Positions 4,549 to 37,634 of a stretch of 64,000 bases of DNA are shown piece by piece. This stretch comes from Phage NC-G. Location: sequence record MK310184; one strand, given 5' to 3'. Under the pieces are notes generated by a model. That model was not told the DNA's origin. It made no database searches and saw only the letters and a list, made by a program, of their open reading frames with translations. Both the position numbers and the translations under genes were made by a program. The first letter of the stretch is position 1. Each line of letters opens with the position of its first letter.

Positions 4549-5319
4549 ATGGCCACTTTCGATTCGAGTTTATTCGCTAAGCTGGAAAATAACACCGGCT
4601 ATGCTAACACGAACGAAACTGAAATAATGAACCCTTTCGTCAACTTTTATCGCCATGAGAACACTCAAACATTGGCTGATGCTTTAGTTGCTGAGTCTAT
4701 TCAAATGCGTGGTATCGAGCTTTATTATATACCACGCGAATACGTTAATCCTGACCAGCTATTTGGCGAAGACCTTCAGAACAAATTTACTAAAGCCTGG
4801 AAGTTTGCGGGTTATTTGGATTCCTTTGAAGGTTATTCCGGTGACAATACTTATTTCAGTAAGTTCGGTATGATGGTTAATGATGAAGTAACAATCACAA
4901 TTAACCCTAACCTTTTTAAACATCAATGCAACGGTACTGAACCTGTTTCAGGTGACTTGATTTATTTCCCAATGGACAATAGTCTATTCGAAATTAACTG
5001 GGTTCAACCTTACGACCCTTTCTATCAAGTCGGTACAAACGTCCAGCGTCGCATTACTGCTACCAAGTTCATTTATAATGGTGAGGAACTTCGTCCTGAA
5101 TTACAGAGAAATGAAGGCATTAATATTCCTGAATTCAGTGAGCTTGATTTAATGCCTGTTAAGAATATTGATGGGTTGGCTGATATCTCTGACATTCAAT
5201 ACGAAGAGGTTAATGAGATTAATGCTGAAGCGGCGGAATTCGTACATCCTTATGTGGTGATTAATGGTAGAGGAGAAGATGCTCCTACAGCATTTGATGA
5301 TGCTTTTTTAGATGATTAA
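4549..5319 (+). CDS. 14: Neck protein gp14
   Basis: 256-aa ORF, same length as T4 gp14, syntenic. Confidence 0.85.
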
Positions 5320-5326
5320 ATAATAC

Positions 5327-5348
5327 ATGGCGCATCCCGCGCCATTTT
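5327..5348 (+). terminator. Hairpin terminator after gene 14
   Basis: tggcgcatcccgcgcca stem-loop followed by TTTT. Confidence 0.6.
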
Positions 5349-5355
5349 AGGAGGT

Positions 5356-6221
5356 TTGATGTTTGGACATTGGTATAATAGTTCGCTACGTCGCTATATT
5401 GTTTTGATGGGTGATTTATTTTCCCATGTTCAAGTAGCACGTCAAAGAGAAGATACAGGGCTTAAATTTATTAAGGTTCCTATTACGTATGCTTCTAAAG
5501 AAAGATTTATGGCTAACTTAGGTAAATGGACGGCAGTACAGAATATCCCAAATCCTAATATGACGCCAAAAGAACGGGCTGAACAAAAAGCTAAAGTGGA
5601 AACTGTTCTTCCACGTATGAACCTTCAAATGGTTGACATGCTTTATAACTCACAATACAAAACAGCTCTTCAAAACAGAACACAAATTCAATTTGAGAAT
5701 GGGGACCCTCGGAAACGAGTCAGCCAATATTCTCCTACTCCAGTAAAAATGATTTTTGAACTGGGTATTTACACCAGAACTCAAGATGATATGTTCCAGA
5801 TTGTGGAACAAATTATGCCGTATTTCCAACCTCACTTTAATACAACAATTACCGAACTCTATACAAACGAAATTAAATTTGACCGTGATATTCGTATTGT
5901 GTTCCAATCTATAGCAATGGACGAACAATTAGAGGGTGATACCACTTCACGTCGTCGCTTGGAATGGTCTATGATGTTTGAGGTTAACGGATGGCTATAT
6001 CCTCCTGTTAAAGAAATGGAAGGCGAAATCAAAACCATTTATCTTGATTTCTTTGCCAACTCTAAAGAACTCGCTCCTGAAGGTAATTTTGAATCGGTTG
6101 ATAGCGAAGTAGTTCCTAGAGGTGTAGAAGAAAAAGAATGGGATGGTAAGTCCATTCAAACGTATTCACAAGATATTCCGGTGCCTGTTGAACCAGAACC
6201 TCCAGCACCAAGGAGAAACCC

Positions 6222-6225
<4 letters not shown>
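5356..6225 (+). CDS. 15: Tail sheath stabilizer / tail completion protein gp15
   Basis: 289-aa ORF in the syntenic position between 14 and 16; stop overlaps gene 16 start (ATGA). Confidence 0.85.
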
Positions 6226-8535
<2,310 letters not shown>

Positions 8536-33141: not shown

Positions 33142-33199
33142 AATGTTCTCCTCATGTTTGTGTAAGGTAATAGTACCACATCCTTGTGGCGTTGTAAAC
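33142..33199 (-). promoter_or_regulatory. Early-promoter cassette upstream of ORF 32851-33141
   Basis: Minus strand: GTTTAC-N18-TACTAT...CATGAGGAGAACATT-ATG, with hairpin CCACAAGGATGTGG in the spacer. Confidence 0.6.
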
Positions 33200-35322
33200 T
33201 ACATTTTGAATTTATTTGATAAAGAAGAGATGTCCAAAGATGCAGCAAGGATTTCCATAGCCTCATTACTTTCTGAAACAGATTCTGAAACTAGGAATTC
33301 TTTAAACCCATTCATCAATTTAACTTCACCGGTTTCCATCAGATGGTCGCCATCGTAAACGGATTCGCTGAGTTCTGAAGGAGATGTCACTGTAGCTTCC
33401 ATAAGGTATTTGTGAGATACTCTATCATTCATAGCAAAAGCCGCTACTTTATCAACCTTCAACAATAACCCGCGCGGAAGGATAATTTCCGCTTCTTCGG
33501 CATATTCTGTAAGGTCGCCAGGAGCGATAACTTTAACTGCTTCAGCACCTCGAATAACCATACCAATTTCAGCAATCCTGTCTGCAGGGCCTTCAGGTGC
33601 AATTGGATTACCAAACTCGTCTTCTTCCCATTCTACCTCTTCGTCATCGACTTCACCTACGTCAGATGAACTACCACTGGCTAATTTAAACAACTCATCA
33701 GCGGAGGATAAAGAACCTTCATCACCAACAAAAACTGCTTGGTTGTCGAGGGCCATATAATTTTTACCAAATTCGCCAAAGATATTAGGCTTTAATGAAG
33801 CGGACACAAAGTTCTTAAAGTAAAATGTTTTGTTATCAATATTATGGCGCAGAATTTTGTATGGTAAATCCTGACCACGATACAAAATAGTACCCTTAGG
33901 AAGTTTAATACCCTTGGTAAATGCTGAGTCTAAATCCTTAATCAATTTAATAGCTGTTGTATTGTTTTCGGATTCAGGTTTACCTAAAAGGAATAAGTTC
34001 ATAGGAGCATATTCAGCCGCACAATATTCAATAATGGCATTACTTTCGTCTTTGGTCAAGCCCTTAGGTTTAATGAGCTCGCCTGAATAAGCATATGCAT
34101 CGCTAATAGAATCGTTAATCAGTTTATAAACGGCTTCCATAGCGAAAGCAATTCGGGATGCTTTCTCTGAAGGAGACCCCTGAAAACGGGCACTCAGGTT
34201 ATTAACAATTCTCTTAATAATATCCAGACTATTGGTAGTATTGATTTGAGAAAGGCCACTTAAAAGTCTATCGACTTCCGTATTAAAAAATGCCATATTA
34301 TTAGAGTAAATTTCAAACCCTTGTTTATCTCTATTAGCATAATTTAGTTTAAATTTACTATCAGTCATTAAAGCGTGCGTGAGAGCAATGGTGTATCTAA
34401 AGTTGGCAAGGTCCTCACTCTTAGATTTAAACTGAGAGGCCTGACGCATTTTAGTAATAGCACCTTTTTTAAAGTTCTGACTAATCTGCTCAATACCTTC
34501 GTTCTCAGGGCCTTCGGCCGAGTGAACAGGGACAGAAGCTTCAAACTCGTTATAAACCTGCAATTCTTTAGGTGATAAAGTTTCAGGTTCGGCAGTAGAA
34601 TACTGTGCTGCTGCAGCCATACGACGGGAAATCTTAGTACGAGAAATAACAGCCTTATCGGTACGTTTCTCTTCAACCTGTGCAATAGATGCCGCTACGG
34701 CTTCTACTTTACTTACGGCCTGGCCGGTTTTCTTAGAAACATAAACTTCACCGACTTTAGACTCAACCTTGGTATAAAGGTCTGCATCAATTTCAGGCAT
34801 ACCCTTGATATCTTCGATATTAGAACCACGACGTACTAAAAGGACGTAGGTATGTTTACCACTAAACTGGAACATATCATCGACAACTTTAAACTTACCA
34901 CCGGTACGTGCCATCGCCAAACGAGCTAATACACGCTGAACAGTAGGGCCCTTACCTTTCATTTTCTTGGTAGGGAAACGGAACAAAACCGCATCCATTT
35001 TAAGTTTGTTTACTTGTTCGTATACAGTATCGAAAATAGTATTCAGTGTACCAAGTGGGTCAGAACCAAGCCCGCCTTTGAGTTCGGCTGGAGCACCCTT
35101 GCTAGACAAACTCATTAAAATAACATGAACGTATTTGTCGCCAGGCTTAACCATTTTAATAGCGTCTCCTTGAGACGCATAAGATACCATACGAGCAACC
35201 AGGTTATCATTACCTGGCGCTTGGATAGAGAAAATCTGTGGGATACCTGAGCCTGGCTTAAGATTTGTTACTGGATAGTTTTTAGCTGAATCACTATCAA
35301 AAACTTCGTTTAAATTTTCCAT
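33199..35322 (-). CDS. Alt-like ADP-ribosyltransferase paralog (707 aa)
   Basis: Collinear with adjacent alt: shared N-terminal packaging region (LVARMVSYAS.GDAIK, FRFPTKKMKG.GP), catalytic-domain blocks YRGQ, FYFKNFVSASL, EIILPRGL, YDGDHLMETGE. Confidence 0.88.
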   Translation of the reverse strand: MENLNEVFDSDSAKNYPVTNLKPGSGIPQIFSIQAPGNDNLVARMVSYASQGDAIKMVKPGDKYVHVILMSLSSKGAPAELKGGLGSDPLGTLNTIFDTVYEQVNKLKMDAVLFRFPTKKMKGKGPTVQRVLARLAMARTGGKFKVVDDMFQFSGKHTYVLLVRRGSNIEDIKGMPEIDADLYTKVESKVGEVYVSKKTGQAVSKVEAVAASIAQVEEKRTDKAVISRTKISRRMAAAAQYSTAEPETLSPKELQVYNEFEASVPVHSAEGPENEGIEQISQNFKKGAITKMRQASQFKSKSEDLANFRYTIALTHALMTDSKFKLNYANRDKQGFEIYSNNMAFFNTEVDRLLSGLSQINTTNSLDIIKRIVNNLSARFQGSPSEKASRIAFAMEAVYKLINDSISDAYAYSGELIKPKGLTKDESNAIIEYCAAEYAPMNLFLLGKPESENNTTAIKLIKDLDSAFTKGIKLPKGTILYRGQDLPYKILRHNIDNKTFYFKNFVSASLKPNIFGEFGKNYMALDNQAVFVGDEGSLSSADELFKLASGSSSDVGEVDDEEVEWEEDEFGNPIAPEGPADRIAEIGMVIRGAEAVKVIAPGDLTEYAEEAEIILPRGLLLKVDKVAAFAMNDRVSHKYLMEATVTSPSELSESVYDGDHLMETGEVKLMNGFKEFLVSESVSESNEAMEILAASLDISSLSNKFKM

Positions 35323-35325
35323 TAT

Positions 35326-37410
35326 TTACCCTTGGATGAATTTTTCTGGGATGTCATAGAGGTCTATGCATGAAGCCAAAAGAGGCAGTACGTCAAACCG
35401 TGTAGATTTAACAAATGAATCAAAAGATACAGGGCTTTCGGAAGTATCGAAGTCATCTTGGTATACAACCAATTCACCAGTTTCCATTAGTACGTCGCCA
35501 TCATACACTACAGATTCTTGAAGCTCATCTGTCGTCATAACTTCGGCTTGAACGAGTTTTGTATTATTAGATGTTGTTCCGTCATTATTAGAGGCGTCAG
35601 TTATTTTATTAACTTTGACCATCAATCCGCGTGGTAGAATAACTTCAGCTTCGGTTGCTATTCCGAGACTTCCTGGATATACAACATTAACTTTATGGGC
35701 TCCATCAATTGCCCATCCTATTTGAACTTTAACGTAATCAGGGTTTTCTTTATACGCTCTTATTTCATTAGGATTAATGGTTATTCCTTCTTCATTTTTA
35801 TCGACTGTCAATTCATTGCGAACTTCCGGTTCTAAAAGACCTACACCCGCGTGTGTAACACCAAAACGTCCAAAAATGATAGGAGTCAGTGAAGTAGATA
35901 CAAAATTTCTGAAATAGAACACTTTATTTTTAACTAGCGCTTCGTATATAGGAGCAGTCATACTTTGAGCACGATAAACTGTAATGCCTTCTGGTATACG
36001 GTCACCATTTTCAAAAGCGGAATCAAGATTATTAACAGCAGATTCAATAGACCTTTCACTCATCACATCATAGTTCTGAGGATTGTAACGCCCTAAAAGA
36101 AGATTATTGATGTCGGTATATCCTGAGCCACAATATTCTCTAATGCCACGCTTTTGTGATGGGGTGTATTTAGAACCATCGCGAGCAATAGTAATATCGA
36201 CCATAATACCACCACCTACGCCAGCAAAACTATACACGCGTTTTTTAATGAACTTGGTCTTGGCTGCTTTCCACTTGGACTCGGTTAATTCATTCCAGAC
36301 GTCGTCAGGTTGACCTTTACGAGTTTTGTTATGTATAGCCAACCATTCACCTTTGTATTCTTCGAAAACCGTATTAATAACAGAGGCATATTTTTCTAGA
36401 GCTTTAACAGATGTCAAAGGTTCGTTTTTGATGGCTGTAAGAATTTTCTCTTTAATTTTCTCTTGAATTTCACCTATGCCGTGAAGTGGAAACATTTTAT
36501 ATTCGTAATGCAACTCTTCAGCAGTGCCTTCAGCTACTATATTAGCAACTTTATTTTTAGCCGCAGGAGAATTGTTATTGGTGACCATTTCCTGGGCCTC
36601 AGGGATTAACGGAGCTGTTGCAGGTTTATTAAAATCTGCTGCAGTAGCTTCATATTTCTTAAACAGTTCACTTTCATTACGATAAGATTCTAAAGATTGA
36701 CTGGCTGCAATAGCTCGACGAGAAATCTTAGTCTTGGTTACAACCATTTTATCAGTGCGACGTTCTTCGACTTTAGCAATACTGCCGGCAATAGCAGTTT
36801 CTTTAGTAACCTGCATGCCTTCTTTTTTAGAAATATAAACTTCGCCAACATCAGAATCTACCTTAGTATACAAATCAGCATTAATTCCTGGCATACCTTT
36901 GATATCTTCAATATCAGCTTGTTTACGAACTACTAGGATATAAGTATGTTTACCAGTAAATTGGTACATAGCCGGAACTACTTTGAAGCGGCCGCCTGTT
37001 TTTTGAGTTACCAAACGTTGGATGATTCTCTGGACGATAGGTCCTTGCCCTTTCATTTTCTTGGTTGGAAAACGGAACATGATAGCATCCATACGAAGCT
37101 TTTTAACTTGTTCGAATACTACGTCGAAAATGGTATTAATAGCATCAATAGGAGTAGGGCCTAAGCCGCCTTTAAGTTCGGCTGGAGAACCTTTAGCTGA
37201 AAGGCTCATAAGGATAACGTGGGCGTATTTATCACCTAATTTAACCTGTTTAATAGCATCGCCTTCAGAGGCATAAGATACCATACGAGCAACTAATTGG
37301 GATTCGGCGTCGCCAATCTTCCAAATCTGCGGTACTTTAAGTTTTGGGTTTAAGTTTACAGTAGGCAGGGTGCCTTCGGACTCAAACACCTCATTCAATT
37401 GTTCGGTCAT
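35326..37410 (-). CDS. alt: Alt ADP-ribosyltransferase (capsid-packaged, modifies host RNA polymerase), 694 aa
   Basis: Closest to remembered T4 Alt: ...KYTPSQKRGIREY.GSGY.DINN.LLG, VYRAQSM, VFYFRNFVSTSL, EVILPRGLMVKVNKITDAS, C-terminal ASCIDL...KF.QG. Confidence 0.93.
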   Translation of the reverse strand: MTEQLNEVFESEGTLPTVNLNPKLKVPQIWKIGDAESQLVARMVSYASEGDAIKQVKLGDKYAHVILMSLSAKGSPAELKGGLGPTPIDAINTIFDVVFEQVKKLRMDAIMFRFPTKKMKGQGPIVQRIIQRLVTQKTGGRFKVVPAMYQFTGKHTYILVVRKQADIEDIKGMPGINADLYTKVDSDVGEVYISKKEGMQVTKETAIAGSIAKVEERRTDKMVVTKTKISRRAIAASQSLESYRNESELFKKYEATAADFNKPATAPLIPEAQEMVTNNNSPAAKNKVANIVAEGTAEELHYEYKMFPLHGIGEIQEKIKEKILTAIKNEPLTSVKALEKYASVINTVFEEYKGEWLAIHNKTRKGQPDDVWNELTESKWKAAKTKFIKKRVYSFAGVGGGIMVDITIARDGSKYTPSQKRGIREYCGSGYTDINNLLLGRYNPQNYDVMSERSIESAVNNLDSAFENGDRIPEGITVYRAQSMTAPIYEALVKNKVFYFRNFVSTSLTPIIFGRFGVTHAGVGLLEPEVRNELTVDKNEEGITINPNEIRAYKENPDYVKVQIGWAIDGAHKVNVVYPGSLGIATEAEVILPRGLMVKVNKITDASNNDGTTSNNTKLVQAEVMTTDELQESVVYDGDVLMETGELVVYQDDFDTSESPVSFDSFVKSTRFDVLPLLASCIDLYDIPEKFIQG

Positions 37411-37460: not shown

Positions 37461-37634
37461 TTAAAGTGGTAGCAACGTACGATATACTTCGAATGTCGGG
37501 CCTTTTTCATAGCCATCAAACATGTCTTTAAAATCGGCAAAAGCTATTTCATCCTCAAACTCTAGGATGATTTGAGAGGCCGCAGTGGTATTTGTGTTTG
37601 TTACAACAATTGTTTCTAAATAAGCTTTCATATT
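37461..37634 (-). CDS. Small hypothetical protein (57 aa) between DNA ligase and alt
   Basis: ATGA-coupled to ligase stop; acidic small protein; followed by hairpin AGGCCCGAAGGCCT. Confidence 0.45.
   Translation of the reverse strand, partial: NMKAYLETIVVTNTNTTAASQIILEFEDEIAFADFKDMFDGYEKGPTFEVYRTLLPL

Follow-up and report, generated by a model that had tools for sequence, protein, structure and literature searches.

The Alt protein of bacteriophage T4 is an arginine-specific ADP-ribosyltransferase (ART) which is loaded into the capsid, injected into the host, and modifies the alpha subunit of RNA polymerase as well as other host proteins. Two further T4 proteins, ModA and ModB, belong to the same R-S-E clade of ARTs and both carry the ExE motif, but they are early proteins of around 200 aa that lack the N-terminal domain, the middle domain and the propeptides of Alt. 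The bacterial R-S-E toxins (C3, Vis, iota-Ia and CDTa; Pfam family PF03496) share the catalytic fold and motifs with the Alt proteins at 11–18% identity; they differ in using secretion or a binary B component for delivery, where Alt is expected to rely on capsid packaging, and in lacking the large insertion that follows the STS strand in Alt. Duplications of alt are also on record: Nolan et al. 2006 (PMC1524935) described T4 alt.-1/alt.-2, RB49ORF183c and 44RRORF188c as paralogous duplications of alt, and 44RRORF187c as a full-length alt duplicate. Here, we analyze a tandem pair of alt genes on a 64,000-nt stretch of DNA from Phage NC-G (record MK310184), hereafter the window, and compare it with these systems.

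The pair lies on the minus strand, with open reading frames (ORFs) of 694 aa (copy A) and 707 aa (copy B). An initial annotation of the sequence had reported two Alt-family genes of about 700 aa, head to tail and 3 nt apart, and this is confirmed: the TAA stop codon of copy A is followed by ATA and then by the ATG of copy B. The N-terminal region and the C-terminal ART core are retained in both copies, as that annotation also held, and both are full-length Alt-family proteins. We regard it as likely that the locus represents the usual two-slot arrangement of alt genes in a JS10-like Dhakavirus, with two packaged and injected Alt-type enzymes. Two late genes, probably co-transcribed, would then each give one Alt-type enzyme, and each enzyme would enter the capsid, undergo trimming by the gp21 protease and be injected along with the DNA. 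Copy A is the ortholog of T4 Alt, and copy B is that of the second-slot Alt, which many Tequatroviruses have in intact form. Given unrelated middle domains and an identity of only about 36% between the ART domains, the ADP-ribosylating turn-turn (ARTT) loop included, the two enzymes probably act on different host proteins.

The tandem arrangement itself is already known, both from annotated public genomes and from the alt duplications published in 2006. The GenBank records of JS10 (EU863409) and IME08 (HM071924) already call them alta and altb, with the product name ‘Alt RNA polymerase ADP-ribosylase’; they are the same genes in the same order and with the same neighbors as here. The nucleotide identity of the pair is 96% to JS10 and 93% to IME08, JS10 AltB and copy B are 99% identical (homolog cluster P0001, 59 member sequences), and these differences amount to allelic variants without any difference of substance. 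At the DNA level the 4.2 kb region is 96–97% identical to Escherichia phages Esco_phi_B-01 and JS10, and 90–94% identical to some thirty further Dhakaviruses. As first stated, the finding adds little: dozens of Dhakavirus and Tequatrovirus genomes have tandem alt genes in their annotation, and the sequence change singled out in copy B (S-T-S to S-A-S, see below) is conservative.

Architecture and orthology of the two copies

Pfam family PF03496 (ADPrib_exo_Tox) matches copy A with an E value of 8e-36 (124 bits) and copy B with an E value of 6e-18 (65 bits). The profile of phrog_802, ‘Alt-like RNA polymerase ADP-ribosyltransferase’, is matched from end to end by both proteins (aa 1–693 of A, E 1.5e-262; aa 1–707 of B, E 7.5e-251). 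Judged from the sequences, the resemblance between the copies is real homology and not chance. They are 65% identical over the N-terminal ~240 aa, have no detectable similarity over the middle ~175 aa (11% identity) and are 33–36% identical in the ART region. In both, the C-terminal tail of ~55–60 aa opens with an invariant YDGDxLMETGE block. Each protein is built from a short predicted N-terminal propeptide with an L-x-E site, a conserved, genus-typical N-terminal domain (N-domain) of ~240 aa, a helical middle region joined to an ART domain with the R-S-ExE set, and, after a second L-x-E site, a predicted propeptide at the C terminus. A search of NCBIfam gave no family match for copy A, copy B or the neighboring alt.-3 and alt.1 homologs.

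Copy A is 47% identical to its T4 ortholog Alt (gpAlt, 682 aa) overall and 63% in the ART domain, and 66% identical overall to alt_2 of phage UFV-AREG1. Its architecture, synteny, R-S-ExE set, L-x-E sites and upstream hairpin are those of T4 Alt. The pair sits between gene 30 (ligase)/alt.1 and alt.-3/gene 54, which is the position of the T4 Alt family. Copy B shares 33% identity with T4 Alt, to which its middle domain is unrelated, and is the ortholog of the second-slot Alt of UFV-AREG1, alt_1 (685 aa; 48% identity overall, 59% in the ART domain). The two occupy the same position and share a middle region at 43% identity, the same ...KFKM ending and an ARTT loop that contains an aromatic residue; unlike copy B, alt_1 has S-T-S and an N-domain of Tequatrovirus type (46% identity), and its acidic insertion is shorter. 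Neither window copy resembles a ModA/ModB-type protein: both are multidomain proteins of ~700 aa, 16–19% identical to ModA and ModB in the ART region only. A tblastn search for ModA and ModB in the window returned chance matches only (E ≥ 0.7).

T4 has one intact alt, and its second slot is cut down to alt.-1 (61 aa) and alt.-2 (67 aa). These fragments are 96–98% identical to residues 1–56 and 62–116 of UFV-AREG1 alt_1. In a DNA comparison of T4 (OL964735, locus 5056–5441) with UFV-AREG1 (6095–8152), ~1.69 kb of the second gene is gone (UFV-AREG1 locus ~6443–8132) and the remainder differs by small indels with seven gap positions. On this comparison, T4 is evidently a mutant that has lost most of its second alt slot by a natural deletion. 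Fragments of the alt.-1/alt.-2 type appear to make up PHROGs 23015 and 15247 (61 and 67 aa, ‘unknown function’).

A tblastn search with the N-domain found 1811 places in 1201 phage records, two each in T4 (AF158101) and T2, and a second alt copy or a remnant of one is present in about half of the Alt-bearing phage records. Together with the T4 fragments, this distribution indicates that the two-slot state is widespread and that T4 is the reduced form. The suggestion in the initial annotation that a second Alt expands the host-modifying repertoire relative to T4 is therefore inverted, and an expanded repertoire exists just in relation to the laboratory strain T4. Some Dhakaviruses (AnYang, QL01, MX01 and fDHCT2) even have three tandem alt copies.

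The N-domain has a well-defined predicted structure. A dedicated AlphaFold2 (AF2) model of the copy B N-domain has a predicted local distance difference test (pLDDT) score of 85.6 and a predicted template modeling (pTM) score of 0.84. Foldseek found no confident structural homolog for it, with weak GNAT-like matches only (E ≥ 0.018). Pfam gave no match at E ≤ 10 for the N-domains of copy A, copy B or T4 Alt, and a profile search against PDB sequences gave 0 N-domain matches at E ≤ 10. A conserved K-x-x-G-x-G/A after a beta-strand resembles GNAT motif A. We do not adopt a GNAT enzyme as the reading of the N-domain, given that the structural matches are weak and lack support from sequence profiles, and keep the resemblance as a lead: the domain could be a degenerate GNAT-like fold with a ligand-binding loop of its own.

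Expression, processing and packaging signals

In T4 Alt, mass spectrometry has shown that gp21 cuts at ITE-6 and LTE-619 and thereby removes 63 C-terminal residues (PMC5694885; PMC9026906). Both window copies have L-x-E motifs at both homologous positions: those of copy A are LNE-7 and LQE-632, those of copy B LNE-6 and LSE-653. Candidate gp21 sites, for which the initial annotation had proposed a search, are thus present in both. Upstream of copy A, a hairpin followed by a T-run is invariant in the Dhakaviruses, T4 and UFV-AREG1, and is followed by a late-promoter-like element; in the same place T4 and UFV-AREG1 have the exact late-promoter TATAAATA. A Shine-Dalgarno sequence, AGAGGA, precedes the copy A ATG at 37410. 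The 3-nt gap leaves copy B no room for a promoter of its own, and we infer that it is co-transcribed with copy A. These sequence signals suggest that the two genes would be transcribed together and late, and that both proteins would be packaged and cleaved after the T4 Alt pattern.

Several points weigh against this reading of the locus. The promoter element upstream of copy A matches the consensus at seven of eight positions and is not an exact late promoter. Experiments that show copy B in virions, cleaved by gp21, active or with distinct targets were not found in the literature searched, and neither were proteomic data on AltA or AltB in Dhakavirus virions. The paper on Morganella phage MP1 goes no further than to show the single Alt of that phage in virion preparations. 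The acidic insertion in the copy B ART domain is a large loop, modeled at low confidence, that may affect activity. Finally, the view that the targets of A and B probably differ is drawn from divergence only.

The alternative that survives best is that copy B is an active ART that is neither packaged nor injected and works at a late stage within the cytoplasm of the cell that makes it, in a role like that of ModA or ModB. The literature searched gave no virion data for copy B, and its packaging is deduced from homology alone, both of which leave room for such a role. However, copy B keeps the L-N-E propeptide and an N-domain that is 65% identical to that of copy A, its C-terminal L-S-E and YDGDxLMETGE block align to the T4 Alt cleavage site, and it starts 3 nt past altA, behind the late-promoter-like element. 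ModA and ModB have none of these Alt parts. We consider an unpackaged copy B unlikely and retain the reading of two packaged and injected enzymes.

The features of the locus are collected in Table 1. The alt.1 homolog starts 1 nt past the ligase stop codon, and a terminator-like hairpin lies inside its coding sequence (37570–37549). For Alt.-3 of T4, mutants with a C-terminal extension escape the CmdTAC defence system (PMC11618068). A scan of the locus for sigma-70 promoters and terminators found sites no more numerous than in shuffled sequence. The whole window has 17 exact copies of TATAAATA, mostly on the plus strand between 3.5 and 23 kb, where 6.6 ± 2.3 would be expected for the window (0 of 100 shuffles reached 17).

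Table 1 Features of the alt locus in the window (coordinates refer to the 64,000-nt stretch).
Feature	Position	Strand	Basis or remark
Copy A (altA), 694 aa	35326..37410	-	ORF, PF03496, phrog_802; adjoins gp30 DNA ligase gene and small alt.1
Copy A N-terminal domain, aa 1-238	36697..37410	-	Domain-wise alignment
Copy A L-N-E, Glu7	37390-37392	-	Aligned to T4 Alt ITE-6 gp21 site
Copy A ART domain, aa 413-632	35515..36174	-	PF03496, alignment
Copy A catalytic Arg480	35971-35973	-	
Copy A S-T-S, aa 505-507	35890-35898	-	
Copy A E587-A-E589	35644-35652	-	
Copy A L-Q-E632, ART domain end	35515-35517	-	Aligned to T4 Alt LTE-619 site
Copy A predicted C-terminal propeptide, aa 633-694	35329..35514	-	Starts with YDGDxLMETGE
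Copy B (altB), 707 aa	33199..35322	-	ORF, PF03496, phrog_802
Copy B N-terminal domain, aa 1-240	34603..35322	-	Alignment, AF2 model
Copy B L-N-E6	35305-35307	-	Aligned to T4 Alt ITE-6
Copy B middle all-helical region, aa 241-419	34066..34602	-	43% identity to UFV-AREG1 alt_1
Copy B ART domain, aa 420-653	33364..34065	-	PF03496, alignment, AF2
Copy B catalytic Arg482	33877-33879	-	
Copy B S-A-S, aa 507-509	33796-33804	-	
Copy B S-A-S Ala codon GCT	33799-33801	-	
Copy B acidic insertion, aa 519-580	33583-33768	-	pLDDT < 50; contains SSDVGEVDDEEVEWEEDEFGNP
Copy B E610-A-E612	33487-33495	-	
Copy B L-S-E653, ART domain end	33364-33366	-	Aligned to T4 Alt LTE-619
Copy B predicted C-terminal propeptide, aa 654-707	33202..33363	-	Alignment
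Hairpin GGCC-TTCG-GGCC (GGCCTTCGGGCC) and T-run	37460-37445	-	Upstream of copy A
Late-promoter-like element CATAAATA	37440-37433	-	7/8 match to T4 late-promoter consensus
alt.1 homolog, 56 aa from ATG of JS10 annotation	37461..37631	-	phrog_1976, function unknown
alt.-3 homolog, 96 aa	32851..33141	-	58% identity to T4 Alt.-3, phrog_1739; directly downstream of copy B, same orientation
Terminator-like hairpin	32844-32821	-	After alt.-3 homolog

The ART core and its S-x-S motif

Both copies are predicted to be active arginine-specific mono-ADP-ribosyltransferases, as judged from their motifs. In a family alignment of 128 sequences, made up of 120 homolog clusters (P0001–P0120) and eight sequences from the window and the compared loci, the catalytic Arg is present in 127, and the first Ser and the ExE motif in all 128. 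The sole exception for Arg, RB69 (P0115), looks misaligned. R480, S505, E587 and E589 of copy A and R482, S507, E610 and E612 of copy B fall in these invariant columns. The same residues are kept in both copies when they are aligned with T4 Alt, ModA and ModB. The fold comparison covered copy B, whose AF2 model (mean pLDDT 76.6, pTM 0.70) has the ART fold and matches Vis, Certhrax, C3 and the CDTa/iota-like ART toxins in Foldseek with E values of 5e-7 to 1e-4 and a probability of 1.00. A sequence search of the PDB gave just weak iota-toxin matches (E ~2e-3) and no Alt structure. The strongly acidic insertion of copy B lies just past the S-x-S strand, at the place of the phosphate-nicotinamide (PN) loop in related toxins, and is longer than in copy A or in the Tequatrovirus B-type ortholog.

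The initial annotation attached particular weight to the S-x-S motif, and the peptides that it quoted are found exactly: FYFRNFVSTSL and EAEVILPRG in copy A, and FYFKNFVSASL and EAEIILPRG in copy B. The change from S-T-S to S-A-S is a single transition, ACT to GCT, and does lie in the STS motif. Its proposed consequence, a new substrate or target specificity for copy B, is very improbable. In favor of it are the position of the change, its fixation in seven of seven Dhakavirus B copies (JS10 AltB has it), and the dominance of S-T-S in the alignment (116 of 128, against four S-A-S, four S-T-T, two S-T-A and one S-C-S). ModA of T4, a characterised and active ART, nevertheless has S-A-S itself at the aligned position (VVSASY), and ModB has S-F-T. 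Moreover, S-A-S arose in two independent lineages, the Dhakavirus B group and P0015, and the nearest ART relatives of P0015 are 79–81% identical to it and all S-T-S. It does not define the B lineage either, since S-T-S is found in all of the B-type ART domains closest to it outside the Dhakaviruses (P0002 at 67% identity, P0003 at 64% and UFV-AREG1 alt_1 at ~58–59%).

In the R-S-E clade, specificity is ascribed to the ARTT loop and the difference between ExE and QxE, which also argues against the S-x-S motif as its seat. Mutants of related toxins point the same way: for T339A and S340A in iota toxin, the loss of activity was described as ‘significant but not severe’, and neither Km nor kcat changed markedly (PMC3202787), and the first-Ser mutant S345A of CDTa retains transferase activity (PMC5613739). 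By beta-strand geometry, we infer that the middle residue of the motif should point away from the pocket for nicotinamide adenine dinucleotide (NAD). Given the precedent of ModA, the independent origin in P0015 and the mild iota-toxin mutants, S-A-S is best seen as a tolerated, recurrent and functionally mild variant that is unlikely to act as a specificity switch.

Copies A and B differ massively elsewhere, at 64% of ART positions and throughout the middle domain. The ARTT loops read ...PGSLGIATEAE in copy A and ...PGDLTEYAEEAE in copy B, with the aromatic residue conserved in B-type sequences. If the targets of the two enzymes differ, better candidates for the cause would be the middle domains, the ARTT loops and the copy B acidic insertion.

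Copy B is not decaying and is under strong purifying selection. In pairwise Nei-Gojobori comparisons of the window and six other Dhakaviruses, the ratio of nonsynonymous to synonymous substitution rates (dN/dS) is 0.03–0.08 for copy A and 0.03–0.07 for copy B, and both ORFs are intact in all seven genomes. In the copy B ART domain dN/dS is 0.00–0.03 at a synonymous divergence (dS) of 0.09–0.30, as low as or below that of copy A. The initial annotation had allowed for a decayed paralog lacking the catalytic Glu or Arg, which these results do not bear out. The view that copy B has begun to decay or has lost catalysis, and persists purely in a structural or packaging role, is scarcely credible: its Pfam score is below that of copy A, its ART domain has the long low-confidence acidic insertion, and T4 did lose its second copy, but the 707-codon frame and its ART domain are conserved to this degree, the Arg, first Ser and ExE are all kept, and the model shows the ART fold.

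Signs of ART cassette exchange between alt slots

Across the family, N-domains group by phage genus and slot, whereas ART domains group by type. The N-domains of copies A and B are 65% identical and those of T4 Alt and UFV-AREG1 alt_1 68%, against 45% between copy A and T4 Alt. Copy A and UFV-AREG1 alt_2 are 94% identical in the ART domain and 46% in the N-domain, and alt_2 has an N-domain 100% identical to that of T4 Alt with an ART domain that is 66% identical. Single-linkage clustering at 75% of the domains of full-length (≥660 aa) family sequences gave 12 N-domain clusters versus 35 ART clusters. The N-domain of copy B type bears five ART types, including that of T4 Alt in phage Bp7 (P0006), the ART type of copy A occurs on two N-domain clusters, and that of T4 Alt occurs on three. 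In copy A of phage dhaeg, dS is 1.32 in the ART domain versus 0.19 in the N-domain, a sign of module replacement. These discordant relationships point to an exchange of middle/ART cassettes between slots and genera, as far as sequence comparison can tell. We did not find this modular pattern of N-domain and ART described in the literature searched.

Where three alt genes are present, the middle one (AnYang 5089–7134) is chimeric. Its N-domain is 89–91% identical to that of copy B, it has a third ART type (identity of 40% with A and 35% with B), and in the C-terminal tail it resembles A (68%). Unlike in the window pair, the N-domain of AnYang copy 2 is 89% identical to that of copy 3. We considered whether the A and B N-domains had recently undergone gene conversion, and rejected this: they have 64% nucleotide identity and 44% third-position identity, and their longest exact run is 23 nt.

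It is possible, although on balance we would not count on it, that the alt locus is a polymorphic-effector array, in which the genus-specific N ‘delivery’ domain and the gp21-cleaved propeptides would serve as a chassis for swapped middle-plus-ART cassettes. On that view, the phage would inject copy B as an additional enzyme directed at host proteins other than the targets of copy A, for example in host defence.

No biochemical study of any second-slot Alt was found in the literature searched, and we know of none that has been biochemically characterised. To our knowledge, all work on Alt has been done in T4, which is itself a deletion mutant for the second slot. The pattern of cassette shuffling in the cluster counts, with one ART type on different N-domains, suggests a diversifying pressure on injected effectors, as in arms-race loci.

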